Assembly (NCBI GenBank): GCA_038060895.1
Contig: JBBTCT010000027.1
Location: 1-64,000, forward strand
Length of the DNA stretch: 64,000 bases
DNA from: Planctomycetota bacterium
GTDB taxonomy: Bacteria > Planctomycetota > MHYJ01 > WSZJ01
Reading direction: 5' to 3'
The position numbers and the translations under genes were made by a program. The notes under the pieces are model-generated. The model was not told where the DNA came from. It was given only the letters and a program-made list of their open reading frames with translations, and did not search any database. Shown in pieces: positions 7,651 through 64,000 of the stretch; the stretch's first letter is position 1, and every line of letters begins with the position of its first letter.

Positions 7651-10600
7651 ATGCCAAAGCCGGCCGACCCACTGAGCGACACGCTGTATGACATGCCCAC
7701 GCTCAACAGGCTCTTCTTCGCATCGTCGATCCTGCTCATCGCCGTCACGGTCTGGATGACGTGGCAGGACTACGACCGCAACTGGAAACATTTCCAGCGC
7801 GATTTCAACGAGCTCGCCCTGAAGAAGGCGGAGAAGGAACGCGCAGACATCGAGAGCGCCCTGAAGAATTCCGAACGCGGCCAGGAACTGAGCGCCCTGC
7901 GCGAACAGCTCAAGTCGGCGGAGAGCGTGGTCGAGCAGAAGAAGAAGTCCATCGATGAGATCAACGAGAAACGCGAAAAGAACCGCGGCCCGATGGAGAA
8001 GGCCGTCCAGGAGTTCCAGTTCGACAAGTCGGAAGCGGACACGTTCAAGTTCAAGGCCGAGAAATCGGCGGTCGATTACGAGCACGCGAAGAAGCATGCC
8101 GAGGAGCTGAAGGGAAAGGACGGCGCCGCCCACGCGGAGGCCGTGTTGCCCGGGCTCAAGAAGGACATGGATGCCGCTGAGCTGCGCTTCGAGGAAAAGA
8201 ACAAGGAAACGATCGAAGCGAAGAAGGAATGGGAGAAGTTCGACGCGATCGACAGGGGATTCGCGGCGGAGATTGCCGTGATCCTGAAGGACACGGTCGA
8301 GGTGGGGAAGCAGATCGCGAAGATCGAGACGGACCTGGACGCGAAGAAGCGGCAGATCGCGAAGCTCGAGCCGAGCCTGGCGAAACTGCTGCTCAACGCG
8401 CCCGGCATGGATTTCGTCGCCCCGACCGAGAAAATTGACCAGAACATCCTGCCGCACTTCCTCGAGGACGTGAACTTCGAATCGAGCGTCTTCAAGATCG
8501 ACCGGTGCACGACGTGCCACCTGGCGATCAGCAAGTCGAAGGGCTGGACGAAGTCGGACCTGCCTGAGGGGACGTCGCCGGCGTTCTTCAGCCATCCGAA
8601 CCTGGACCTGTACGTGGGTGACAATTCGCCGCACCCGATTTCGAAGTTCGGCTGCACGATCTGCCACAACGGTCAGGGGAGATCGGTGGACTTCATCTAT
8701 GCGGCGCACACGCCGAAGAACGCGGAGCAGGAAAAGAAGTGGGAAGAGAAGTACTCGTGGAAGCCCGTGGCGCACTACGACACGCCGATGCTGCCGACGC
8801 CGTACGTGGAGGCGTCGTGCACGAAGTGCCATTCGACGCAGCACCGCGTGACGATGGCGGACAAGCTGAATGAAGGAAAGCGCCTGCTGGAGACGGTGGG
8901 GTGTTACGGCTGCCATCCGATTGCGGGGACGGAAGACCTTCGGAAGCCCGGGCCGAGCCTCTACGGGTTGAAGTACAAGGTTACGAAGGACTGGGCCTAC
9001 AACTGGATTGCGGATCCGACGCAATTCCGGCCGACCACGAAGATGCCCAGGCCGTTCTACACGTCGCCGGCGCTGAACGAGAAAGAGAAGGCGGACGTGG
9101 AGAAGCGGAACCAGGCGATGATCCAGGGGATCGTCGAGTACCTGTGGGAGAACGAGAATCTGCCCGGGGTTCCGAAGGCCGGGTATCCGGCGCCGCCGGC
9201 GGGCGATGTCGCGAAAGGGAAGCAGCTGGTGGAGGCTGTCGGCTGCATCGCGTGCCACGTTCTGGACAAGCCGGAAGAGAAGGGGGACCAGTACCGTTCG
9301 TTCGGGCCAAACCTGGCGGGAGTCGGGAGCAAGCTGAACCCGGGATGGACGTACGCCTGGCTCAAGGACCCGAGCCAGTATTTCCACGCCACGAACATGC
9401 CGAACCTGCGCCTCTCCGACCAGGAGGCCGCGGACGCGACGGCGTACCTGCTGTCGCTGAAGCATCACGACAAGTTTGAGGACCGCAAGTCGCCACCGGT
9501 AGACGAAGCCGTGCTGGAGCGGACGATCATCGACTTCAAGAAGGGCGCGATGTCGATGGCGCAAGCGGAGAAGGAGGCAAAGGAGCTTTCACCGCAGGGC
9601 AAGCTTCTCTGGCTCGGCGAGAAGGCGATCGGCCAGATGGGGTGCTTCGGCTGCCACGACGTGAAGAAGTTCGAGAAGACCAAGAAAATCGGAGCCGAGC
9701 TCACCGGCTCGAATTCGACCGGGACCAAGGACATCACGAAATTCGACTTCGGCTTCCGCCATGACCTGCAGCACGGCCACCACCCGCTTTCCAACGACAA
9801 GATCAACTGGGTCCGGGCGAAGCTCGCCGATCCGAGGACCTACGACGGCGGTCGCATTATGGCGTACGAGGACAGGCTGAGAATGCCGAAATTCAACCTG
9901 ACACAGGACGACATCGAAGCGCTGACGACCTACGTGCTGTCGTTCCGGCGAGAGGTGGTGAACCCGCTCTACAAGCGCAACATGTCGAACGAAGACACCG
10001 TGATCGACCGCGGAAAGCGCCTTGTCACGCTCTCGAACTGCGCTTCTTGCCACAAGACGGGCGTCTGGCCGACCCGCGTGGCCGTGACAGGCTCGGTGGA
10101 CGGCGAGAACAACATCGGCGTGATCAACGGGATGAACATCTACGCCGCGCGGAACATTCTCAACGACGGCCGCCAGGTGGACAGAATCAGCGACGAGGAA
10201 CTCGCCATCCTCAAGAAGAAGGGGATCGTCATCCTCGTGAAGAAGGGGACGTGGCTGAAAGGCCGTGTCGTGGAAGACCTGCTCAACAACAACATCCACG
10301 AAGTCATCGTCTACGGCGAGAACGAGGGCGCGATCCGGTATCTCGTGAACATCTCCGAAAAGGACAACAAGGCCCCGCCGGTCATCGTCGGCGAAGGCGC
10401 AAAAGTGAACCCGGAGTGGCTCTTCTCCTTCCTGAAAGCGCCCACCGAGATCCGTCCATGGTTGTCGGGCGCGGACGACAGGGGAGTGGTCGATCCGGCG
10501 AAGCGCGGCGTGCGCATGCCGACGTTCGGGTTTACCGACGACGAAGCGACCCTGATCGTCCAGCACTTCTCATATCTGTCAGGCGAGCGGACTCCCTTCC

Positions 10601-10905
10601 GGTACGAACCGCCCCTCGACCCCGCGGCGCGGGAGAAGATGCTGGCGAAGGGGAAGGCCGTTTTCGATGAGAACAAGTGCGCGAGCTGCCACGTAGTTGC
10701 CGGGGGGAAGCTCACGACGGACAATCCTGCGCCTGCGTTCGCCAAAGTTGCGCCGCGGCTCCAGAAGGACTGGTTCGGCCCCTGGATCCGCGATCCGCAG
10801 GCGTTTGCGCCGGGCGTCGGCATGACCAGCTACAACGAAGTCCAGATCAAACCGGAGGACGAGGATTCGCTCCGCGAGTACATCTGGAGCCTTCACGGAA
10901 AATAA
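7651..10905 (+). CDS. Membrane-anchored octaheme cytochrome c with coiled-coil stalk
   Basis: 8 CxxCH motifs (CTTCH, CTICH, CTKCH, CYGCH, CIACH, CFGCH, CASCH, CASCH), N-terminal TM, long E/K-rich coiled coil. Confidence 0.92.
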   Translation: MPKPADPLSDTLYDMPTLNRLFFASSILLIAVTVWMTWQDYDRNWKHFQRDFNELALKKAEKERADIESALKNSERGQELSALREQLKSAESVVEQKKKSIDEINEKREKNRGPMEKAVQEFQFDKSEADTFKFKAEKSAVDYEHAKKHAEELKGKDGAAHAEAVLPGLKKDMDAAELRFEEKNKETIEAKKEWEKFDAIDRGFAAEIAVILKDTVEVGKQIAKIETDLDAKKRQIAKLEPSLAKLLLNAPGMDFVAPTEKIDQNILPHFLEDVNFESSVFKIDRCTTCHLAISKSKGWTKSDLPEGTSPAFFSHPNLDLYVGDNSPHPISKFGCTICHNGQGRSVDFIYAAHTPKNAEQEKKWEEKYSWKPVAHYDTPMLPTPYVEASCTKCHSTQHRVTMADKLNEGKRLLETVGCYGCHPIAGTEDLRKPGPSLYGLKYKVTKDWAYNWIADPTQFRPTTKMPRPFYTSPALNEKEKADVEKRNQAMIQGIVEYLWENENLPGVPKAGYPAPPAGDVAKGKQLVEAVGCIACHVLDKPEEKGDQYRSFGPNLAGVGSKLNPGWTYAWLKDPSQYFHATNMPNLRLSDQEAADATAYLLSLKHHDKFEDRKSPPVDEAVLERTIIDFKKGAMSMAQAEKEAKELSPQGKLLWLGEKAIGQMGCFGCHDVKKFEKTKKIGAELTGSNSTGTKDITKFDFGFRHDLQHGHHPLSNDKINWVRAKLADPRTYDGGRIMAYEDRLRMPKFNLTQDDIEALTTYVLSFRREVVNPLYKRNMSNEDTVIDRGKRLVTLSNCASCHKTGVWPTRVAVTGSVDGENNIGVINGMNIYAARNILNDGRQVDRISDEELAILKKKGIVILVKKGTWLKGRVVEDLLNNNIHEVIVYGENEGAIRYLVNISEKDNKAPPVIVGEGAKVNPEWLFSFLKAPTEIRPWLSGADDRGVVDPAKRGVRMPTFGFTDDEATLIVQHFSYLSGERTPFRYEPPLDPAAREKMLAKGKAVFDENKCASCHVVAGGKLTTDNPAPAFAKVAPRLQKDWFGPWIRDPQAFAPGVGMTSYNEVQIKPEDEDSLREYIWSLHGK

Positions 10906-10956
10906 ACCACTGCTGAAAGAGCAGGCCATTTTCATCCCAGAAAGAGGAGCAAGAAG

Positions 10957-11778
10957 ATGACAAACGTCCTGAAGTGCAGCCTGGTCGTCGCGCTGGCGAT
11001 GGCCATGCTGTCGGGCTGCGGCAAGACCGAAGAGAAAAAACCCGCCGACGGAGGCGCAGGTGGCGGCGGCGGCGCGCCGGTCCCGGACAACACCGTGGAG
11101 GTCAAGCCCGACGCGGCGACGGTCGGGAAGATCACGGTCACCGTGAAGCTGAAAGGCGCCGCCCCTGCGCGCGCGCCGATCGACATGTCGGACGCGGAAT
11201 GCGCCGCGGCGCACGCTTCTGAACCGGCCCTCGACGAAACCGTCGTCCCCGGCTCCGGCGGGACTCTTCAGAACGCGATGGTCTGGATCGAGAAGGGCCT
11301 CGACGCCAAATACGTCTTCAAGGCGCCGGCCGCCGCCGTCCTCGTGGACCAGTCCGGCTGCATCTACAAGCCGCACGTCCTGACGATGATGACGAAGCAG
11401 TCGATCGAAGTGAAGAACAGCGACGGCGTGCAGCACAACATCCACGCGACGTCGAAGGCGAACCCGGAGTTCAACTTCAGCCAGGCCCCCAAGACTTCGC
11501 TGACGCTGACGACCGGCTCGAAGGACCGGACTTTCACGCAGCCGGAAGTGCCGCTGAAGATGAAGTGCGAAATTCACGGCTGGATGGGCGCGTGGGTCGG
11601 CGTGTTCAAGCACCCGTACCATGGGGTTTCGGGCGCGGACGGAACGGTCACGCTGAAGGACGTTCCGCCGGGAACGTACACGATCACGGTCTGGCACGAA
11701 AAGTTCGGGAAGAAAGAAGCCCAGGTGACGCTGAAGGACAAGGGCGCTGAAGCGGCGAGCGTCGAGTTCGGGGAGTAG
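10957..11778 (+). CDS. Lipoprotein, cupredoxin-like plus carboxypeptidase-regulatory-like domain
   Basis: Lipobox LSGC; HNIH...CEIHGWM putative type-1 Cu ligands; VPPGTYTITVWHE. Confidence 0.75.
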   Translation: MTNVLKCSLVVALAMAMLSGCGKTEEKKPADGGAGGGGGAPVPDNTVEVKPDAATVGKITVTVKLKGAAPARAPIDMSDAECAAAHASEPALDETVVPGSGGTLQNAMVWIEKGLDAKYVFKAPAAAVLVDQSGCIYKPHVLTMMTKQSIEVKNSDGVQHNIHATSKANPEFNFSQAPKTSLTLTTGSKDRTFTQPEVPLKMKCEIHGWMGAWVGVFKHPYHGVSGADGTVTLKDVPPGTYTITVWHEKFGKKEAQVTLKDKGAEAASVEFGE

Positions 11779-54940: not shown

Positions 54941-56122
54941 TCAGGGGAAACGAACTCCGTACACGTGCAGCTTCTCCCCAGCCTGCACACCCAGTGTCGT
55001 GCCGTCATCGCTGAAAGCAAGCTGACTGATCTTGCCCCCCGGTTGGAACTCAGCCAGCTTCTCCCATGTCGTCGAAAGCCGGATCAAGACTTTCCCGTCC
55101 GGGCTGCCCATCGCGATCCAAACGCCGTCCGGGCTCAGCGCAAGCGCGGAAAGGCCGCTCTTGCCGAGGCCGCTGGCGCGGGGTTTGTCAAATTCAAGCC
55201 AAACGGAGGTAGATAGCGCGACTTCCGCACTCTCTTTCGACCCGATTACGACGGCAGCGGTCTTGCGTGCCGCGTCCAGGAGACTCGGAACTTCAAGCGG
55301 TACGGCCTTTCGCACCATCAATTTCAAGGACCTGGAATCCCATCGAGCAACATGAAGTTCGGTATCCCGGCAGAGCGCGACGATTCCGATGTCCTGTGCG
55401 ACAGCCATCTGGATTTCTTTCTGCAATGTTGGAGTTGTCAGTTCCCATGACTCGCCCGTGGGCTGCTCGACCCAGAGCCCGTTTTCACAAACGCAGACAA
55501 AGCGGTTGTCGTCCAGGCGCAACACTGAACGAAGCTGACCACCACTATGGCCGAGGAATCCGGTCAGCTTTGGGACTAGCGACCCGCACCTGTCGGCCGA
55601 TTGTGGTTCAAAGAGCGCGATTTCGATGCGGTCGCGCAACGGGATGCCGATGCATCTCGCGCCCAGAAAGATCGGCGAGGCTACCTTTGGGGCAATCCCC
55701 ATTCGCGCACCTCGCTCTGCTTGTTCCCGGGGCGCGACACGCAGTTCTGAGTCCCTTGACTTGAAAAGCACTGACTTTTCGCTCTCGAAGGTTGCAAACG
55801 TCCTGCCATCGGTCGCCAGTGCGAACGGACCGATGGAATCGACGACCTCCCGTTCCTTGGGAAGGACCTCCAAGATCTCGATCACCGTCGCCAGGCGGTG
55901 TATTGCCTTCGGTTGAGTGCTCTTTTTCAACTTCGCACGAAGCAACGGCAAGGATGACGTCCCGGCGGTCAAGATGACTTGCCTGGCTTCATCGCGAACA
56001 AAGTCAATGTCGTGGACGACATCGCGTAGGGCTGACTCCATGCGGTCATTTTCCGGCGGTTGCGCGTCCTCGGCGCTGCCTGAGACGCAGGCGAACAGAA
56101 GGAACAGAGCGATGCGGTTCAT
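54941..56122 (-). CDS. Secreted WD40-like beta-propeller protein
   Basis: Signal peptide; ALSPDG..IA.G..DG.V, LAFS.DG..L repeats. Confidence 0.65.
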   Translation of the reverse strand: MNRIALFLLFACVSGSAEDAQPPENDRMESALRDVVHDIDFVRDEARQVILTAGTSSLPLLRAKLKKSTQPKAIHRLATVIEILEVLPKEREVVDSIGPFALATDGRTFATFESEKSVLFKSRDSELRVAPREQAERGARMGIAPKVASPIFLGARCIGIPLRDRIEIALFEPQSADRCGSLVPKLTGFLGHSGGQLRSVLRLDDNRFVCVCENGLWVEQPTGESWELTTPTLQKEIQMAVAQDIGIVALCRDTELHVARWDSRSLKLMVRKAVPLEVPSLLDAARKTAAVVIGSKESAEVALSTSVWLEFDKPRASGLGKSGLSALALSPDGVWIAMGSPDGKVLIRLSTTWEKLAEFQPGGKISQLAFSDDGTTLGVQAGEKLHVYGVRFP

Positions 56123-56238
56123 GCGTACCTCGATAGGGTGCCGCTTCCAATTCTAACGGAGTGAGGTCGTGCCTGTTCGTCCGTTCGCGCAGATGCGACG
56201 CCTTGCTGCTTCTTGGGCACCGTCTTACACTTTCGCGC

Positions 56239-56439
56239 GTGAAGATCACGCTCAATGGTGAGGCACGGGAGGTCCGCGAGGGGATGACCCTCGATGGGCT
56301 GCTGGGCGAGATCGGGCTCAAGGAACCGATGGTGGCGACGGAAGTCAACCTGGAGATCGTGGTGAGGGCGGAAAGGGCGGAGAAGGTGCTTCGCGAAGGA
56401 GACAAAGTCGAGGTTGTGAGTTTCGTCGGGGGCGGGTAA
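56239..56439 (+). CDS. thiS: Sulfur carrier protein ThiS
   Basis: ITLNGE...VA.EVN..IV...[14 protein letters not shown]. Confidence 0.92.
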
Positions 56440-56486
56440 TTGAAACTTCGGTGGGCAAGGGCAAGGGCAAGGGCAAGGGAGAGAGC

Positions 56487-57266
56487 ATGATCGACGGGGA
56501 TGGCTTTAGGGTCGGCAAGTACGATTTCCGGTCGCGATTGATCATCGGGACGGGGAAGTACGCGACCCTCGACGTCATGGCCGCGGCGCTCGACGCCTCC
56601 GGCACGGATTGCGTCACGGTTGCAGTGCGGCGGGTCGACCTCAAGGCGAAAGAGTCCATCCTCACGCGCATCGACCGGGCGCGCTTCAAGATTCTTCCCA
56701 ATACCGCGGGTTGCTTCAACGCTGATGACGCACTGCGTTATTCGCGACTGGGGCGGGAGGCCGGGCTGAGCGATCTCGTCAAGCTGGAAGTGCTGGCGGA
56801 CGAGAAGACGCTGCTGCCGGACGTTGAGGAAACGCTGAAGGCCGCTCGCGTCCTGGTGAAGGAAGGATTCGTCGTGATGGCTTACACCAGCGACGACCCG
56901 GTGACCGCCCTGAAGTTGCAGGACGCGGGGTGCGCTTCCGTCATGCCTCTTGGATCGCTCATCGGAAGCGGGCTCGGGATCCTGAACCCCCACAACTTGC
57001 AGATCATCCTCCACCGGCTCACCGTTCCCGTCATCGTCGATGCGGGCGTCGGCACCGCTTCCGATGTCGCGGTGGCGATGGAACTCGGCGCTGCGGGAGT
57101 GCTCTGCAACACGGGGATCGCCCACGCGAAGGACCCGGCGAAGATGGCGGCGGCGATGAAGCACGGCGTCATCGGCGGGCGGCTCGCGTTTCTGGCCGGG
57201 CGAATCGCAAAGCGGCCGTTCGAGGGGAGTCCGTCCAGTCCGGCGTCGGGGATGCTCGGCAGGTAG
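56487..57266 (+). CDS. thiG: Thiazole synthase
   Basis: [45 protein letters not shown]. Confidence 0.96.
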
Positions 57267-57276
57267 ACCGCTGGAC

Positions 57277-57718
57277 CTACTTGTCGCGCTCGGGCCGCGG
57301 AAGAAGCGCTTCTTTCAGCAGCTCGGACATCGGATTCGCCGGCTCGCGATGAACGAACGCCTCCGCCTCCTTCCGCTCTTCGCCGTAAGCCTGGCAGGCG
57401 CGCTGGAAATCCTCCAGCGCCCCGGCCCGATCGCCCGTCTCAAATCGGGAGATTCCGCGGCGATAACGGACTCCCGGCGAATCCGACCGCTTGAGGCAGG
57501 CGTCGTACGCCGCGACCGCACGAGCATGCTCGCCGAGCGCCTGGTGGCAGTCGCCGATCGGCCGGTAATCCTGGCCGCCCTCTGCCTCGAGGTCGGCGAG
57601 GGCGCCCCGGTAGTCCCCGGTTTCGATCCGGCAGCGCGCCCGGGCGCCCAGGACTGCGCTTCCCGGATGGTGCGGCTTGACCGCGAGTGACCGGGTGTAG
57701 TCTTCGATCGCGCGCTTA
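57277..57718 (-). pseudogene. C-terminal fragment of TPR gene disrupted by the island
   Basis: Startless open frame KRAIEDYTRSLAVKP...GDYRGALADL...GEHARAVAAYDACL...GDRAGALEDFQRA...RDK*; same strand and frame as 61096-61605. Confidence 0.8.
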
Positions 57719-57834
57719 GTGGACTTAACATTTTAGGAATTAGCATATAAACAAACCCGAACTCTTCAGGATTTGACAATTGTGACTCTTTGTGATAAGG
57801 ATGAACCAACTGGCATTTGAAGGGAGGTGGTTCT

Positions 57835-59094
57835 ATGACCAAGGCAACAGGTCTGCTTCTTACGAAGCATTCTTGCGCCAGTACGCTCTCCGTGGAAGAT
57901 GCAAGATTTTCAAGGAGGAAGTTCCTTAAGGTTGCTGGCGGTATTGTTGTTGCTTATACTGTGCTTGGCTCTCTTGATGATGTTTTTGCAGACCCTGAAG
58001 TTAAGGTTGAGACTGTTGTGAATAATGGTCCTTCTGAATTACGATACGATTTGGTTTGGATGCCTGAAGGTTATACTGTAAAGGAGCAGGCCAAATTCAA
58101 CAAAGATTTCGAGGCAATTATCAAAGCTTCCGAGAAACGTAAATTTTTCAAAGAGTATGGCAATTTGTTTAACTGGCACAGGATTTGGGTGCCGTCTGAG
58201 AATGCGTGGACAAAGTCAGGCGGAACTGGAACTGTTTTCGACATCGAAGATAAGGAAGGTCAAATCATGGTCAATAATAAACAAAAAATGAAGGAACTTT
58301 CTGGCAAAGCCAAAACTGATTTACCGTGTATACTTGTTAATGCTGCGGCAAGACTTGGATACACCACCCAGGAATTTTTAATAGCTGATCTTAATTTCAA
58401 TAGTGCAATTCACGAACTCGGTCATGGTATAGGCGCACTTGAAGACGAATATGATAAGTCTATTGACAAACGGAGCAAAGGCATTAATACATCTATTGAC
58501 GAAAAAAATCCTCCTTGGAAAAAACTTGTAGATAACAAAGTAAAAGGCATTGGTGTGTATCAATGCAAAGATTTCAATGGAAAAGTAATTCCGGGTTATT
58601 TCAAAGGTGAGGAAGCCAAGTGTTTGATGGAAGCTGTTGGTGAAGACATGGACTACGGCATCCTTTGCACTAACGGCATGATTCTCGGCTTGCGTAAAGA
58701 AATCGGCGTGATTGCTTCTGCTCCTGCAGAAGGTGTTATTAGTGTTAAGAAAAATGTTCCTGTTGGCATAGTTTTAGAAACTCTTGCTTCAAGAACTTAT
58801 ATTCCAACTGTGAAAGCAGGTTATGCTTCTGGCACTCCAGAAGAGATGGATGCTTTGGCAGGTCAATTGAGAGCTGGCAAGTTGTCTGTTGATTCTTTTG
58901 CAGACAAGACCAAGTACAAGTCAGCCACAATGGCTAATGTGAAGAACAAGTCAACCTTGACGGATAAGCTTGGTCCGGGTTCTTATGTTGTTGCTGTTGT
59001 TGTTCAGGATTCAAATCCTGCAATTCTTTTGGACCCGAATGGTGTTACAAGAGCTCAACGTGTTTATCGTGTTGATGTTGGTACTGATAAGTGA
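57835..59094 (+). CDS. Tat-exported M64 (IgA protease)-like metallopeptidase
   Basis: SRRKFLK Tat signal; NNGPSELRYDLVWMPEGYT; HELGHGIGALEDEY zinc motif; CLM; GGAGGTG RBS. Confidence 0.8.
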   Translation: MTKATGLLLTKHSCASTLSVEDARFSRRKFLKVAGGIVVAYTVLGSLDDVFADPEVKVETVVNNGPSELRYDLVWMPEGYTVKEQAKFNKDFEAIIKASEKRKFFKEYGNLFNWHRIWVPSENAWTKSGGTGTVFDIEDKEGQIMVNNKQKMKELSGKAKTDLPCILVNAAARLGYTTQEFLIADLNFNSAIHELGHGIGALEDEYDKSIDKRSKGINTSIDEKNPPWKKLVDNKVKGIGVYQCKDFNGKVIPGYFKGEEAKCLMEAVGEDMDYGILCTNGMILGLRKEIGVIASAPAEGVISVKKNVPVGIVLETLASRTYIPTVKAGYASGTPEEMDALAGQLRAGKLSVDSFADKTKYKSATMANVKNKSTLTDKLGPGSYVVAVVVQDSNPAILLDPNGVTRAQRVYRVDVGTDK

Positions 59095-59367
59095 ACTGAT
59101 TTAGCCGACACTCAGAATTGGAATTTTCAGAAGCGCTTGAATCTCTCTTGAATATGCTAAGTAAGGCTAGTTTATGCCCATATCTGTTGAACACCTAGGC
59201 ACGAATGATGCCATCTGTCGTCAAAAATTATGCTCCTCAAAGCGCCAGGGACGGACTTAACTTAGCTGTATTTTGAGGGTTAGGAGGACGCCTGCAAGAT
59301 TTTTCTTGACTGCACCGCCGTACTCGTTCATTCTATTGTACGGCTCAGACTCTTAAGGAGACTAAAG

Positions 59368-59592
59368 ATGATGCTCACTGTGGAAGAAGGTTCGACTCGA
59401 AAGACGTTCGCGGAAAGGTTCCTGAAAGACTACGAAAATAAAGAGCTGAAGTCAGTTGATGCGTGGCGGTGGACTCCTGTCAATCCGGTAACGACACCCA
59501 ATCTAAGCCCTACGTACGATACGTTCACCGCTACGACAGTTCCTACAGGAAACCCGCAATACGCTGATAGCCAGCCCGACAGCGATCCTTAA
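59368..59592 (+). CDS. Putative graspetide (ATP-grasp RiPP) precursor
   Basis: Leader TFAERFL (cf. PFFARFL), Thr/Ser/Asp-rich core ending DSQPDSDP; AAGGAG RBS; 2 nt before the ligase gene. Confidence 0.8.
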   Translation: MMLTVEEGSTRKTFAERFLKDYENKELKSVDAWRWTPVNPVTTPNLSPTYDTFTATTVPTGNPQYADSQPDSDP

Positions 59593-59594
59593 CG

Positions 59595-60572
59595 ATGGCC
59601 GGCAAGCCGACAGTTGTCATTATTTCCCTCGTCACAGATGAACACGTTGTTCATCTGTTGCCGTATTTAGAGAAAAACGCAGTAGTCTATTTTATTAAAC
59701 TTGATTCATTAGCCAATCATAAATTGGTCATAAGTGATTATGGCAAAAACCTGCTAGTTGATGGGCAACACATTGCATGCGAGGAATTGACCTCTCTATG
59801 GCTAAGGCGAAATATTGATATCCCAGACCCTGAGAAGGAACCTGCTAAAATCCTCCAGGTACGAGAAAGTCAGGCTTTATCTCGCTCTCTAAGATCCTTT
59901 CCAGCTAAGCGCAAGGTTTCGGACCAATGGTCAATAAAAGCTTCCGAGGACAAGCTTCATTGTCTACGCATAGCGCAAAGTTGCGGTTGGAAAGTTCCGG
60001 ATTCAATCATAACTAATAATCCGGAAGTCTTACTTGCTTTTTGGAAAAAATACGATGGCAAAATTTGTACAAAAACCATGTCAGTGCCAGTCATACTGAG
60101 CAAGAATGAAAAAGCGAAAGTGTTCTACACGAGTTTGCTCGACTACAAAGATATCGAAGAACGCGCTGCCCTCGCAGGTACAATTCCAATGCTCTTTCAA
60201 CAGTACATTGAGAAAGCATATGAAGTGAGAAGCACAGTAGTTGGAAAGCAGGTTTATTCTGCGGCGATCTATTCACAAAAATCAGATTTAACAAAGACTG
60301 ATTGGAGAAATTATGATTTCCCGAATGTGCCACACTTTCCTATTAACCTGCCACCGGAAGTTGAGCAGAGGCTCCTTTCAACGATTAAAAGGCTGGGTCT
60401 CAATTTTGCCGCTTGTGACTTGATCGTCACTCCGGATAACGAGTATGTATTTCTAGAAGCTAATCCAGTGGGACAATGGCTCTGGATTGAGCAATTATGC
60501 GGTTTGCCCATATCAGAAGCTCTCTGCTCGCTTCTTTGTTTTAACTCCGCGCCATTGATTGAAGAGAAATAA
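59595..60572 (+). CDS. MvdC/MvdD-family ATP-grasp RiPP macrocyclase
   Basis: SLWLRR, DK...L..A...G..VP.S.ITN, FQQYIEKAYEVRSTVVG, DWR, GL.F.A.D, FLEANPVGQWLWIE. Confidence 0.92.
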   Translation: MAGKPTVVIISLVTDEHVVHLLPYLEKNAVVYFIKLDSLANHKLVISDYGKNLLVDGQHIACEELTSLWLRRNIDIPDPEKEPAKILQVRESQALSRSLRSFPAKRKVSDQWSIKASEDKLHCLRIAQSCGWKVPDSIITNNPEVLLAFWKKYDGKICTKTMSVPVILSKNEKAKVFYTSLLDYKDIEERAALAGTIPMLFQQYIEKAYEVRSTVVGKQVYSAAIYSQKSDLTKTDWRNYDFPNVPHFPINLPPEVEQRLLSTIKRLGLNFAACDLIVTPDNEYVFLEANPVGQWLWIEQLCGLPISEALCSLLCFNSAPLIEEK

Positions 60573-60575
60573 ATC

Positions 60576-60941
60576 TTAGCATTGGTATCTTATGGGTACA
60601 TCCAAATTCGACAGTTTGATTCCACGAGGTCTTTCTCGCAGAATATAATGAAATGCCTGTTGCCTCATCAACTTTCGCTTAATTCGAATTGGCCTAACAT
60701 TGGTTCGTCCATACCTTTCCCAGATCAATCCACGGTCCTCTATAGGTTGCATAATTTCATGTTCAAGAACTCGACGAGCATGCATTATGCTTTGAGTTTT
60801 ATCACCTGTAATCTCGGCGGTTAAGAGAAAATCAAACGTATCATATTTAGCATACCTTAGCCTTAGGTTTCGGGTAATGCCCAGTCCTGAATTTTTAAGA
60901 TTACGCGATATCTCTTGTCTGATGGTCTGTAACTTCGGCAT
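60576..60941 (-). CDS. Small basic hypothetical protein
   Basis: 121-aa AT-rich ORF, Arg-rich, convergent with the ligase. Confidence 0.5.
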   Translation of the reverse strand: MPKLQTIRQEISRNLKNSGLGITRNLRLRYAKYDTFDFLLTAEITGDKTQSIMHARRVLEHEIMQPIEDRGLIWERYGRTNVRPIRIKRKLMRQQAFHYILRERPRGIKLSNLDVPIRYQC

Positions 60942-61000
60942 ACCGTTCTTCCAGACTCGATAGTATTTAATATTTACGGCTAAGCGTTTTATTTGATCTC

Positions 61001-61058
61001 TCCCGAATCTCCCGAATCGCTCCCGAATCTGTCAGACGGAGTTATTCCGTTCCCGAAT
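61001..61058. repeat. TCCCGAAT direct repeats x4
   Basis: Copies at 61001, 61010, 61021 and 61051, near the island right end. Confidence 0.8.
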
Positions 61059-61095
61059 ACCTTGAAACGCCTTGAGTGGATGCCGTCATCCGGCT

Positions 61096-61605
61096 TCAAA
61101 GGTTAAGTACAGCAAGAGCGCCGGCGTGGTCCCCCCCGCCGCACCGGAGCCGCGCGCGCTGGTACCACGCGAGGTCGTTCTGCGGGTCGCGGCGGATCAA
61201 TTCATCGTAGTCCTGCCTCGCGGCCTTTTCCTGGTCGGAATACGCACGCCAGTAGGCGCGGTCATGAAGCGCTTCGAGGTGACCCGGGTCGATTTCGAGC
61301 GCGCGCGAGTATTCGCGGATCATGTCCGAAATGACGCTTTTCGGAAGGTAGATCGGACCCACCCCGAGCCGCCCGCACGCTTCCCTGGAAATCTCGGACG
61401 CCCTCTCGCAGTGCGCATGCGCTTCGGTCTGCCGTTCGTCCGGCGTCAACCGCGAGATCCTCCACCGGTCCAGGCCCTTGACGAACCCGATTCCCAGGAT
61501 CAGACCGACCAGCGGGGCACGAATGATCCGCCACGCCTTGCGTGCGCGCCCCCCGGCCTGCGGCGAGGTCGTTTCGGTCTGTGGATCGGGCTCCACTTTG
61601 TACAC
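61096..61605 (-). pseudogene. N-terminal fragment of TPR protein (truncated by the island)
   Basis: TM then TPRs (EYSRALEIDP, DYDELIRRDP...WYQRAR...GDHAGALA); ends VLNL* inside the island end motif. Confidence 0.75.
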
Positions 61606-61631
61606 TCGCGCCCCTTCAAAAGGAGACGCCC

Positions 61632-62360
61632 GTGAAAGGAATCGTCCTCGCCGGCGGCCTCGGCACGCGAATGATGCCGCTGACCAAGGTGACCAACAAG
61701 CACCTGCTGCCGGTCTACAACAAGCCGATGGTCTATTACCCGATCCAGGCGCTCGTCGACGCGGGGATCCGGGACATCATGATCGTAACGGGCGGCAATT
61801 CGGCGGGGGACTTCCTGAAGCTGCTGGGGAACGGGGAAGAATTCGGGCTGAAGCAGATCAATTATGCGTACCAGAAGGGCGAGGGCGGGATTGCGGAAGC
61901 GCTGGGGATCTGCGAGCAGTTCGGGAAAGGTGAGCGGATCGCGGTGGTGCTCGGGGACAACATCATCGAGCGGAACATTGCCGAAGCGGTGACGAAGTTC
62001 AAGGCGCAGGCGAAGGGCGCGAAGATTCTTCTGAAGGAAGTGCCGGACCCCGAGCGGTTTGGCGTGCCGGAGCTGAAAGGCACTCAGGTCGTGAAGATCG
62101 AGGAGAAGCCGAAGAATCCGAAGTCGAAGTTCGCCGTCATCGGCATCTACATGTACGACGAGCAGGTGTGGGAGTTCATCAAGCGCTGCAAGCCGTCCGG
62201 CCGCGGCGAACTCGAGATCACGGACGTGAATAATTTCTACATCGAGCAGGGGACGATGACGCACGACGTGCTCGATGGTTGGTGGTCTGACGCGGGAACG
62301 TTTGATTCGCTGCTGAAGGCGTCGAAGCTGGTTGCAGAGGGCGGGGCGAACAAGAAGTAG
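61632..62360 (+). CDS. Glucose-1-phosphate thymidylyltransferase-like (RmlA/SpsI short form)
   Basis: KGIVLAGG.GTR..P.T...NKHLLPVYNKPM.YYP, LGDN, EEKP, S.RGELEITD, W.DAGT. Confidence 0.9.
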   Translation: MKGIVLAGGLGTRMMPLTKVTNKHLLPVYNKPMVYYPIQALVDAGIRDIMIVTGGNSAGDFLKLLGNGEEFGLKQINYAYQKGEGGIAEALGICEQFGKGERIAVVLGDNIIERNIAEAVTKFKAQAKGAKILLKEVPDPERFGVPELKGTQVVKIEEKPKNPKSKFAVIGIYMYDEQVWEFIKRCKPSGRGELEITDVNNFYIEQGTMTHDVLDGWWSDAGTFDSLLKASKLVAEGGANKK

Positions 62361-62411
62361 GAGTCTCTCGAGTCGCGTTCAGTTGCCTCTAACGGGCGCG
62401 CCCCCTTGTGG

Positions 62412-63521
62412 CTATTTCAGCGCAGCCGCAACTCCGGCGGCGATCAGCGCCGCGAACGGAAGAGTTGTCACCCACGCGAGCAGGATCGCCGCGATCATCT
62501 TCCACTTTGCGGTGCCGTTGACGGTGCCGATGCCGAAGAGGGCGCCGCAGGAGACGTGGGTGGTTGAGACGGGGAGGCCGAACGCAGTGGCGCAGATGAC
62601 GAGGGATGAGGTGACGAGAGAAGCTGTGAATCCCTGGCCGGTGTTCATGTCGGTAACTTTCTCGCTCATGGTCCGTGCGACCTTCTTCGCGAGTGCGAGC
62701 CCGCCGACCGCCATGGCTGCGGCGACGACCGCTACGCTTCCGCGCACGCCCAGGATCGAAGCGGCCACCGCGAGTGCCGCGATTTTCGGCGCGTCGTTGA
62801 GTCCGCGGGCGAAGGACATCGCGCCTGCCGTCAGGAAGTGGAGTGAGTCGAGGGCCTGCTGGGCGGAGACTCCGGCGACGGCGCCGTTGTAGCGCTGGGT
62901 GCAGCAGGCGGTGGTGCCCGTCTCGAGGGTCGGAATGACCTGGTCCTGCATGTAGGCCAGCGCCGCTGCGGGCGTCGGGCAGGTGGCGACGACTTTCTGG
63001 CCGATGCAGACACAGGATTCGGCGGTGACGCCGAGAGCAAGCCGGGCGCGGCGGAAAAGCAGGTAGAGGAGGAGCGTCGCGAGCATGGCTGCGAGCGGAG
63101 AAAGCGCCAGCGGCAGGGCAAACTTCGTCCCCAGCGTGATCCACTTGAGGTCGCCCGGCGCAAGCACGAGGCCGGCGCCGACGAGCGCTCCGGTCAGGCC
63201 GTGGGTCGTGGAGATCGGGAATCCGATGAGCGTGGCGAGGAGGACTGCTCCCGCGGCGCCGCACGCGGCGCTGAGCAGGAAGGCGGGCTTCGTCGCGACG
63301 GCAGCGGGAACGAGACCTGCGCCCCCGAACGCATTGAAGAGCGCCTCAGCGAACCAGATCGAGATGACGGCCCCGGCGAGTGTCGTGATGGTCGCCCACG
63401 CCATGGCGGGCCAGTAGCGCGCCGTACGCGACCCGAGAATCGTCGCGACGCCCTTTACGTTGTCGTTGGCGCCATTGGCAAAGGCGACGGCGAGGACCGC
63501 GAGGATGAGCGCCGCGGTCAT
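62412..63521 (-). CDS. PiT-family inorganic phosphate transporter with Cys-rich loop
   Basis: NGAND, PISTTH, GLND.PK, GLPVSTTH; loop with CVC, TCP, CCT; TAATG overlap with the upstream gene. Confidence 0.88.
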   Translation of the reverse strand: MTAALILAVLAVAFANGANDNVKGVATILGSRTARYWPAMAWATITTLAGAVISIWFAEALFNAFGGAGLVPAAVATKPAFLLSAACGAAGAVLLATLIGFPISTTHGLTGALVGAGLVLAPGDLKWITLGTKFALPLALSPLAAMLATLLLYLLFRRARLALGVTAESCVCIGQKVVATCPTPAAALAYMQDQVIPTLETGTTACCTQRYNGAVAGVSAQQALDSLHFLTAGAMSFARGLNDAPKIAALAVAASILGVRGSVAVVAAAMAVGGLALAKKVARTMSEKVTDMNTGQGFTASLVTSSLVICATAFGLPVSTTHVSCGALFGIGTVNGTAKWKMIAAILLAWVTTLPFAALIAAGVAAALK

Positions 63522-64000
63522 TAGCAGCATTTCCCGTCGGCGCCGCAGCACTGCCAGTCGGCGGGGCGCTCTCGAGTCGGGTCCGTCACCGCGAACATGC
63601 CCGCCCACGGCGCTTTCTGCAGCTTCGCGGCGGTGTCGGTGCAGACCTCGACGGCGACGCCGCGCGGGAAAAAGTGTCCTTCCTCGTCCACAACGGCTTT
63701 GGCCGGGCCCTGGTAGATGGCCTTCTGCCCGATGAAAACGCAGCCGGCCGTCTTCTCAAACTTGTATCCGCGCACGGTCACGGAGTAGAACGCGAATTGC
63801 TCGACGTTTTTCCACCAGGTTTTCTTGAGGACCTGCAGGCCGTAGAACCCGGCCTTCTCGAGACCCGCCATGAACGCGTCCTCGGTCAGCGCGCCGCTCA
63901 GGCACTCGCCCCAGAGCCGCTCGTTGCCGCGCAGGTGCGCAGGAACCTCTTCCTCGCTCACGATGTCGCTCACCACGATCCGGCCGTGGTCCTTGAGGAC
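63521..64000 (-). CDS. ArsM/AS3MT-like methyltransferase, C-terminal part (runs off window)
   Basis: VSDIV...LWGECLSGAL.E..F...LEKAGF, YSVT.RGYK, CVF.GQ.AIY.GP, D..GH.F.RG...VC; C-terminal CC pairs. Confidence 0.75.
   Translation of the reverse strand, partial: VLKDHGRIVVSDIVSEEEVPAHLRGNERLWGECLSGALTEDAFMAGLEKAGFYGLQVLKKTWWKNVEQFAFYSVTVRGYKFEKTAGCVFIGQKAIYQGPAKAVVDEEGHFFPRGVAVEVCTDTAAKLQKAPWAGMFAVTDPTRERPADWQCCGADGKCC

Follow-up and report, generated by a model that had tools for sequence, protein, structure and literature searches.

A putative graspetide cassette, probably of CPR-like origin, within a gene of a planctomycete

A short precursor ORF beside an MdnC-type ligase gene

Graspetides, which are omega-ester members of the RiPPs (peptides made on the ribosome and modified after translation), are compact, multiply stapled peptides, several of which are potent protease inhibitors. 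We analysed a stretch of 64,000 nucleotides (nt) from a Planctomycetota bacterium (hereafter the window: GenBank assembly GCA_038060895.1, contig JBBTCT010000027.1, positions 1 to 64,000), in which an open reading frame (ORF) of 74 amino acids (aa) lies immediately upstream of a gene for an ATP-grasp ligase. An initial annotation, made from the letters of the window alone, had read this pair as a graspetide precursor with a strong ribosome-binding site, 2 nt 5′ of a single MvdC/D-type ligase gene, in a likely planctomycete host. The positions and the translation given there for the pair hold, and the host attribution is borne out both by the 90%-identity cluster of the ThiG protein, which bears Planctomycetota names, and by the label 'Planctomycetota bacterium' in the table of predicted graspetides of Carter et al. 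2026 (ACS Chem Biol, PMC13097080; hereafter Carter 2026), whose group numbering (after Lee 2020 and Ramesh 2021) we use throughout. The analyses described here suggest that the pair belongs to a self-contained graspetide cassette that is probably foreign to the planctomycete and derived from a lineage resembling the Candidate Phyla Radiation (CPR). The features of the pair are as follows.

59355 to 59360, plus strand: Shine-Dalgarno sequence AAGGAG, read from the sequence, 7 nt 5′ of the precursor start codon
59368 to 59592, plus strand: predicted graspetide precursor gene, 74 aa, from the ORF itself, from purifying selection and from its listing in Carter 2026
59404 to 59427, plus strand: putative leader recognition motif TFAERFLK (residues 13-20), compared with leaders of sister-clade precursors and with one group 10 row (VFAERFLEE)
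59464 to 59487, plus strand: putative second leader motif WRWTPVNP (residues 33-40), found with the pattern W.W.P.N at residue 33 and compared with group 10 rows such as WNWTPANP
59491 to 59589, plus strand: Thr/Asp-rich core (about residues 42-74), preceded by a leader of about residues 1-41, with a predicted boundary
59595 to 60572, plus strand: predicted graspetide synthetase of 325 aa, an ATP-grasp ligase of the MvdC/MvdD (MdnC) type, from profile, structure-sequence and fold matches

The precursor ORF opens with ATGATG and closes with a TAA stop at 59590-59592, after which 2 nt precede the ATG of the ligase ORF; we take the ligase to be translationally coupled to the precursor. The predicted peptide contains ...RKTFAERFLK... 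in its leader and ends in ...TTPNLSPTYDTFTATTVPTGNPQYADSQPDSDP. Its last 33 residues comprise 8 Thr, 3 Ser, 4 Asp and 6 Pro, with 0 Lys, 0 Glu and 0 Cys, in agreement with the Lys-free, ester-only core described in the initial annotation. The core motifs of microviridin (T.K.PSD), plesiocin (TT....EE) and thuringinin (T..T...E..D), which the same annotation had found lacking, gave no match in the precursor when searched as regular expressions.

From a shared-word search of 5.8 billion proteins and a phmmer search of 1.84 billion representative proteins, the sole credible relative of the precursor to emerge was a protein of 96% identity (P0035), the DNA of which (locus L090) lies on an 875-kb metagenome contig. 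(Two long repetitive proteins, with phmmer E values of 5e-4 and 8.5e-4, were judged to be spurious matches.) The two copies of the precursor gene differ in 16 codons, 13 of them synonymously and 3 non-synonymously (T10A, A32E and R34Q), which corresponds to a ratio of non-synonymous to synonymous substitution rates (dN/dS) of 0.056. All three replacements fall within residues 10-34, and residues 42-74 differ by 7 synonymous and 0 non-synonymous changes. This pattern between the two copies indicates that the precursor is translated and constrained, and we regard the ORF as a real coding gene.

Comparisons of profile, sequence and fold all relate the ligase to the enzymes that cyclize microviridins. 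In particular, NCBIfam profiles gave 179 bits for MvdD, 176 for MvdC, 165 for SAV_5884 and 129 for grasp-with-spasm, and the domains named by Pfam were RimK (2.7e-6) and R2K alone. Searched by sequence against the PDB, the ligase matched MdnC (5ig9; E = 1.1e-37), MdnB (2e-35), AMdnB (2.3e-35) and CdnC (8.7e-31), and matched PruB (5.8e-15) and PsnB (6e-4) more weakly. An AlphaFold2 (AF2) model of the ligase, built on an alignment of 16 relatives (pLDDT 85.7, pTM 0.86), had as its top Foldseek match the MdnC+MdnA complex 5ig9, with a TM-score of 0.82-0.87 over 324-325 columns at a sequence identity to MdnC of only 26-28%; CdnC, AMdnB, MdnB, PruB and PsnB ranked next, and RimK, LysX and ArgX only behind those. 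Since the superposition extends over the full length, the N-terminal ~50 residues of the ligase, which are unmatched in the NCBIfam alignments, would share the macrocyclase fold. Residues K207, E210, R212, D236-W237-R238 (the 'DxR' motif), D275, E288 and N290 are invariant across the 16-sequence alignment, and a DFR motif is described as critical in Carter 2026. The ligase, which is present in a single copy in the 5.4-Mb source genome, is 89% identical to its ortholog in L090, with a dN/dS of 0.107.

Thus the ligase has what is expected of a graspetide synthetase, namely membership of the MvdC/MvdD clade of ATP-grasp proteins with intact ATP-binding and DxR motifs, and it stands beside a short ORF with a leader and a donor- and acceptor-rich core that RODEO also scored as a precursor. 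The proposal of a graspetide precursor served by a single ligase therefore stands, on the family and fold matches, the absence of a second ligase copy from the genome and the low dN/dS of the precursor, and the 74-aa ORF very probably encodes the precursor of a graspetide whose core would form esters only.

The description of the candidate as new was an overstatement. Supplementary file 2 of Carter 2026 contains the exact 74-mer as a RODEO-predicted graspetide precursor (start 59367, end 59592, E = 6.7e-75 for the hidden Markov model (HMM) of the synthetase), in a row whose 'Graspetide Group' field is empty. (The groups of Carter 2026 are clusters of a sequence similarity network (SSN) at an alignment score of 70, and 19 new groups of at least 20 members were there added to 24.) The pair is catalogued, yet ungrouped and undiscussed in those parts of Carter 2026 considered here. 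No other mention of it was found in full-text literature searches or in four supplementary files of Makarova et al. 2022 (Biol Direct 17:7, PMC8939145; hereafter Makarova 2022), in which the precursor strings were absent; file 4 of that work lay outside the search.

Leader motifs and relationship to known graspetide groups

The initial annotation had called the leader microviridin-like. This is a fair first description, but the two leader motifs (FAERFL and WxWxPxN(P)) are nearer to those of RODEO group 10 than to PFFARFL, the microviridin leader that activates the ligase (Makarova 2022). The microviridin pathway (group 1; MdnA with MdnB/MdnC, that is, MvdC/MvdD) supplies the best solved homologue of the ligase by both sequence and fold, uses a PFFARFL-type leader helix, and would share with the window pair the ATP-dependent esterification of Thr/Ser with Asp/Glu. 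Unlike that pathway, the window has one ligase rather than two (for ester and amide), no GNAT protein or ABC transporter among the ORFs of the low-GC (guanine plus cytosine) island described below, and a core without the TxKxPSDx(D/E)(D/E) motif in which microviridins form two esters and one amide. Because the core has no Lys, neither a lactam nor a cage topology of the microviridin type is expected.

Classic group 1 clusters also occur among planctomycete relatives, as one locus from a genome of the same phylum illustrates (L008, G057:C1:6605-10390), in which two tandem canonical microviridin-type precursors, with an FFARFL leader and a TLKYPSD core, lie 5′ of an ATP-grasp ligase. None of the seven same-genus genomes has the window ligase, and a ligase match of any kind was found in 7 of 61 relatives (source genome included), the best being a microviridin-type pair of 32-33% identity in a genome of the same phylum.

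Graspimiditides (group 13, for example fuscimiditide) resemble the predicted product in being ester-only stem-loop peptides with Thr/Ser-to-Asp links, and the highest local ligase identity beyond the ortholog (48%, residues 115-318) was to locus L092, whose precursor is labelled as group 13, Patescibacteria, in the Carter 2026 table. In contrast to graspimiditide clusters, in which an O-methyltransferase of the PIMT type makes an aspartimide, the island (57723-61125) encodes no methyltransferase, as judged by a Pfam search of all of its ORFs; the initial annotation had noted the lack of a PIMT partner. A further difference from the group 13 neighbours concerns a larger precursor family found at neighbouring ligases (PFxxxFxE...YDExxQ[VI][WF]...TxTxT...DxDxD, 31 ORFs at E < 1e-3, that of L092 among them), the HMMs of which fail on the window peptide, so that the peptide lies outside this family.

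The leader bears a closer likeness to group 10. Rows of that group in Carter 2026 have a leader of the form M[KN]VF[AG]xx[FY]LE, then 12-16 residues, then WxWxPxN(P), and a core of the form ...STYAxExDxRxDxDRPNEG. In the window peptide WRWTPVNP stands 19 residues after TFAERFLK, and a K replaces the group 10 E. The likeness is striking, if one of motifs only; it extends to the TxT...YA...DSD(R)P flavour of the core and to the use of a single ligase. One might therefore regard the pair as a divergent member of group 10 rather than as part of a separate, CPR-related family, the more so as the exact hexamer FAERFL occurs in a group 10 row (Lewinella sp.), WRWTPVNP compares with WNWTPANP at about equal spacing, and TxT, 'YA' and, at the end, DSD(R)P are found in both cores. 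However, the conserved group 10 core element D.D[RK]PNEG is not found in the precursor, the window has no helicase neighbour, the phmmer search returned no group-10-like peptide at E <= 1e-3, and the empty group field in the Carter 2026 table indicates that the ligase is not in the SSN cluster of group 10. The ligase also fell among CPR-type ligases in three tree runs, although none of these contained group 10 ligases. We thus consider membership of group 10 improbable, and 'a group-10-like leader on a CPR-branch enzyme' a closer description of the pair than 'a microviridin-like leader' appears to be.

Additional searches for group 10 features gave few matches. A tblastn search of plasmids with the precursor returned two records at E values of 3-9, of which the one inspected lay inside a riboflavin-synthase-like ORF and was spurious; the same search with the ligase returned 89 records, and neither of the two loci inspected had a group-10-like precursor. 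The precursor gave two weak matches in 401 Bacteroidota genomes. A degenerate DRPNEG pattern was found in 0 of 401 Bacteroidota genomes and in 3 of 401 genomes of the class of genome G064, where the two loci read were Mur-ligase-like ORFs; it also matched one viral contig, at an RNA-dependent RNA polymerase-like sequence judged spurious. A literature search for 'graspetide' with 'group 10' returned Carter 2026 alone, and no characterised group 10 structure was found by it.

With the 89% ortholog set aside, the nearest ligases reach just 30-48% identity. To place the ligase among them we used 149 of 166 ORFs from the fetched loci (270-420 aa, free of X residues; the other 17 were dropped for length or X) in a first FastTree run, in which the window and L090 ligases fell within a clade of 12 (support 0.915). 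Its named members are from Saccharibacteria (L013 and L025) and Buchananbacteria (L073), the remainder being metagenome contigs, two of which (L109 and L156) are from groundwater. A second set of 47 re-aligned sequences (a 42-tip clade around the window/L090 pair and 5 outgroups) was analysed with FastTree and with IQ-TREE --fast with the approximate likelihood ratio test (aLRT). In these trees the pair was sister to L142, L151, L156 and L167 (0.80; aLRT 87.7) and, together with them, nested in a clade of 14 (0.84; aLRT 81.1). A 0.8-Mb genome is also among the named members across these clades of 12 and 14. All three runs, in which the published branch 1 sequences mentioned below were likewise not included, place the ligase among CPR-labelled ligases.

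The precursors that lie beside sister-clade ligases have comparable leader helices, namely KLFAEQFIER (L156), STFVEQFLER (L167) and PFLTRFIEK (L013) against TFAERFLK in the window, and cores that could be aligned neither to each other nor to the window core. (Two of these precursors, L167 115-390 and L142 3253-3519, have in common a Cys-containing core, TFCT[WF]R...DD[AP]D, and may represent a separate small family.) Among the loci fetched up to that point, no further ORF had both leader motifs.

This arrangement recalls the CPR 'branch 1' loci of Makarova 2022, in which precursor clusters are mutually unrelated, a common leader motif is given as 'Phhx(1,2)h', and most cores carry TxxxTx(6-10)Dx(1-4)D. 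Like those loci, the window pair is minimal (a single MdnC-like ligase gene beside a single short precursor gene) and has the short hydrophobic leader helix in common with its relatives but an unalignable core. This core matches TxxxTx(6-10)Dx(1-4)D twice, starting at T52 and T56, a signature that 15.5% of shuffled cores match too, and the leader lacks the Pro of 'Phhx(1,2)h'. Metallopeptidases are present in some branch 1 loci, and the window island has an M64 peptidase. Unlike those loci, the window host is a 5.4-Mb planctomycete rather than a CPR bacterium, and the cassette carries an orphan 121-aa gene instead of a cluster-23 lipoprotein or a tetratricopeptide-repeat (TPR) partner. The cassette thus appears to sit among CPR-type clusters that have already been described as hyper-diverse.

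Insertion of the island into a host gene and its probable donor

The pair lies on an island whose GC content (0.39-0.46 at about 57750-61000) is well apart from that of its flanks (0.60-0.69). The features of the island outside the pair are as follows.

57723 to 61125, no strand: low-GC island of about 3.4 kb consisting of two tandem cassettes inside a host TPR-repeat gene, from GC content, empty sites and the split gene
57817 to 59094, plus strand: cassette 1, for an M64-family zinc metallopeptidase of 425 aa that looks secreted (Pfam Peptidase_M64, 1.6e-15)
59203 to 59256, no strand: internal junction of the two cassettes, a degenerate copy of site R followed by GGACTTAAC, from alignment and junction comparison
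60576 to 60941, minus strand: orf121, for a basic orphan protein of 121 aa, a gene that converges on that of the ligase within the same mobile block and is conserved in L090
61079 to 61121, no strand: site R of 43 nt, which ends the insertion on the right and is a putative att (recombination) site, 97.7% identical to L090 5608-5650
61126 to 61605, minus strand: portion of the interrupted host TPR-repeat gene that encodes the N terminus, from translations compared with the intact proteins of relatives

In three of the seven same-genus genomes (G004, G003 and G006) the site is empty, with the sequence at window position 57712/57722 joined directly to that at 61118/61126; the loci fetched from the other four do not show both flanks adjoining. 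The same three genomes encode an intact TPR-repeat protein of 294-305 aa, which in the window is split between ...RLRCGGGDH and (T)KRAIEDYTRS..., with its C-terminal part running on the minus strand from 57722 downwards. The empty sites and the split gene together indicate that 57723-61125 is a precise insertion. (The upstream part of the split gene now terminates inside the foreign site R.)

The source genome, a metagenome-type assembly, is 86.5% complete and comprises 47 contigs. In a sequencing run from an independent study (X3), each of the 30 bins of 57300-61400 is covered, and a contig from this run spans the left junction (57614-57888) with 0 differences. Parts of the stretch also occur in runs from a third study, and in both of these further studies the island sequence is found with 0 differences. 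The samples with island sequence are from groundwater or aquifers, or are unlabelled.

At 84.6% identity, L090 5701-7501 corresponds to the right module of the island (59296-61094), which comprises precursor, ligase and orf121 together with the region upstream; the left module, with the M64 gene, lies outside the block common to the two loci. Site R is single copy in the source genome, and host sequence restarts at 61126. R stands to the left of the shared block in L090 but at the right end of the island in the window. An ACTTAAC motif is also found at the left end of the island (~57723), such that the junctions read, with a slash at the boundary, host...GTGG/ACTTAAC on the left, R...GG/ACTTAAC in the middle, R...GTGG/host on the right and R...GTGG/ACACAAC in L090. 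This layout, with its copies of R, is what the tandem insertion of two cassettes through site-specific recombination would be expected to leave, and together with the arrangement in L090 may reflect a cassette-shuttling system. A crossover-like motif, GTGG/AC, is seen at each junction of the island (sites ~57716-57730, 59203-59256 and 61079-61125). We rejected R as an integron attC site, its hairpin potential being no better than that of shuffled sequences (z about 0), and there is no tRNA gene within 55000-64000.

In L090, where GC content is ~42% throughout the 13 kb read, the shared block lies between a gene for a VirB4/TraC-type ATPase and a gene for a large serine recombinase that starts 9 nt past the shared DNA; no recombinase gene lies beside the island in the window. 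The VirB4-like protein of L090 has matches at E ~1e-100 and 35-37% identity in five of five CPR genomes and in none of five other genomes, the source planctomycete included. These matches and the ligase trees point to a CPR/Patescibacteria-like donor, an origin that we consider likely, and hold at no more than that because the set of control genomes is small. The precursor, the ligase and orf121 are accordingly not native to the planctomycete but form a horizontally acquired cassette. (Two further genes of L090 lie just past the recombinase gene, outside the shared block: 9699-10322, plus strand, 2.3 kb away, for a class I S-adenosylmethionine (SAM) methyltransferase that matches general SAM-methyltransferase Pfam families; and 10292-11404, minus strand, for a pyridoxal phosphate-dependent enzyme.)

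The M64 protein contains HELGH, at residue 199, and near its N terminus a twin-arginine-like sequence, SRRKFLKVAGG. Its gene is single copy in the source genome, had no match in any of five CPR genomes, and was found by tblastn beside no other fetched ligase locus, the only match being the window's own copy (L001). The peptidase could be a leader peptidase, the target of the peptide or unrelated cargo. The product of orf121 is 66% identical to its one relative, in L090 (dN/dS 0.23), and belongs to no Pfam, NCBIfam, PHROG or PADLOC family and has no Atlas neighbour. Its AF2 model (pLDDT 79.7) has an alpha-beta-beta-alpha-beta-beta-beta fold for which there was no convincing match in the PDB (best E 2e-3, TM-score at most 0.51), and the protein has neither a signal peptide nor a lipobox of the kind found in Makarova cluster 23 partners. 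Since partner-dependent graspetide synthetases exist (Carter 2026), orf121 could be a ligase partner; an immunity factor and a part of the mobility apparatus are the other candidate roles.

Predicted chemistry, alternative readings and implications

We propose that the ribosome would make the 74-aa precursor, the leader of which (the TFAERFLK helix motif and WRWTPVNP) would dock on the MdnC-type ligase and activate it. By the established mechanism of the class (Carter 2026), a graspetide synthetase uses ATP to phosphorylate a side-chain carboxylate, and the side chain of Ser, Thr or Lys attacks the resulting acyl phosphate. Here the ligase would, with ATP, phosphorylate the core carboxylates of D67, D71, D73 and possibly D51, and Thr/Ser hydroxyls would attack the acyl phosphates to form side-chain-to-side-chain macrolactones. 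Because the core contains neither Lys nor Glu, only esters to Asp would be expected, and at most four of them (D51, D67, D71 and D73). Counting outward from the turn P59-T60-G61-N62-P63 puts T56 opposite D67 and T52 opposite D71, a register that would favour a hairpin of nested links, with T56-D67 enclosed by T52-D71 and D73 perhaps engaged in a third; like the nested topology of three to four links in the initial annotation, it is purely inferential. Removal of the leader, export and a biological activity, for which protease inhibition is the usual precedent, would follow. The cassette itself (promoter region, precursor, ligase and orf121) would have entered the TPR gene, together with the M64 cassette, via site-specific recombination.

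Several findings weigh against this reading of the pair as a graspetide cassette of CPR-like origin. The ligase scores under every NCBIfam equivalog cut-off (475 for MvdD, 425 for MvdC and 350 for SAV_5884). At the Pro position of the 'Phhx(1,2)h' motif of Makarova 2022 the window leader has Thr. Beyond the one ortholog, the phmmer search detected no sequence relative of the precursor, and HMMs built on neighbouring precursor families gave no match to this 74-mer; the selection estimate, moreover, is based on two sequences only. Of composition-preserving shuffles of the core, 15.5% also satisfy TxxxTx(6-10)Dx(1-4)D, so that the signature barely constrains the ring topology. The cassette has no protease or exporter gene, and the M64 peptidase is not conserved alongside it. 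Finally, the cross-links, the chemistry and the ring pattern are predictions from sequence. On balance, we nonetheless consider it probable that the cassette is self-contained, makes a graspetide and reached the planctomycete from a CPR-like lineage.

The genes might be intact and yet not be productively expressed, processed or exported, such that no mature peptide is made in the planctomycete. The foreign GC content, the position inside a host gene, the lack of a protease or transporter in the cassette, and the absence of the recombinase that adjoins the block in L090 would all suit such a silent passenger, as would the outcome of a promoter scan, in which nothing sigma-70-like was flagged 5′ of the precursor. 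However, all three ORFs are intact, and the balance of synonymous and non-synonymous changes indicates selection since the two copies split; the island also recurs with 0 differences in the runs of two further studies. In addition, two RNA libraries made from a single aquifer sample include contigs with 0 differences from the ligase (59859-60089, 60242-60530 and 60258-60473) and also from the M64 gene, a weak hint of transcription of the cassette, as carry-over of DNA is possible. (None of these contigs falls on the precursor itself, although contigs cannot show absence.) That the cassette is silent therefore seems to us unlikely.

Much less likely still is that the small ORF is not the substrate, and that the ligase instead acts on orf121, on the M64 peptidase or on a distant peptide, or serves as a RimK-like amino-acid ligase. 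Pfam does name only RimK and R2K domains, and Makarova 2022 describes ATP-grasp branches for which the locus holds no detectable precursor, but the nearest relatives of the ligase are macrocyclases solved with their precursors (MdnC, CdnC and PsnB), with RimK far lower in rank, and the ORF is apparently coupled to the ligase in translation, combines a leader motif with a Thr/Asp tail, and is strongly constrained. An assembly chimera of two organisms from one groundwater sample, which the fragmented metagenome-type assembly and the existence of a CPR-like relative of the block could suggest, is hardly tenable, given that the block is 15% different from the CPR-like copy, that both of its ends fall at one exact point of a gene intact in relatives, and that a contig from an independent study crosses the left junction without a difference.

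A bolder proposal, which goes beyond the acquired graspetide cassette favoured here and which we regard as speculative, is that the 1.9-kb unit (precursor, ligase, orf121 and R) is a recombinase-mobilised cassette that moved from a CPR episymbiont into its own planctomycete host, that the host now makes the peptide of its symbiont, that the peptide is the first of a new graspetide group, its hairpin being nested and closed by esters only (T56-D67 enclosed by T52-D71, with or without D73), and that orf121 is a needed partner or an immunity protein. If this were true, the island would be a DNA record of a pairing between a CPR bacterium and its host.

Thousands of similar predicted clusters exist, and the present findings do not overturn current understanding; what they add is clean evidence of a mobile graspetide cassette that probably crossed phyla into a planctomycete. 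Each new core pattern contributes a scaffold and an enzyme for peptide engineering, and a predicted all-Asp, all-ester core that is an orphan, in none of the 43 defined groups, has a ring pattern worth solving. With a precise insertion site in a planctomycete and the nearest copy in a CPR-like genome, the island is a concrete case of RiPP cassettes probably passing between phyla in groundwater, and the cassette may be a clue to the associates of CPR bacteria.

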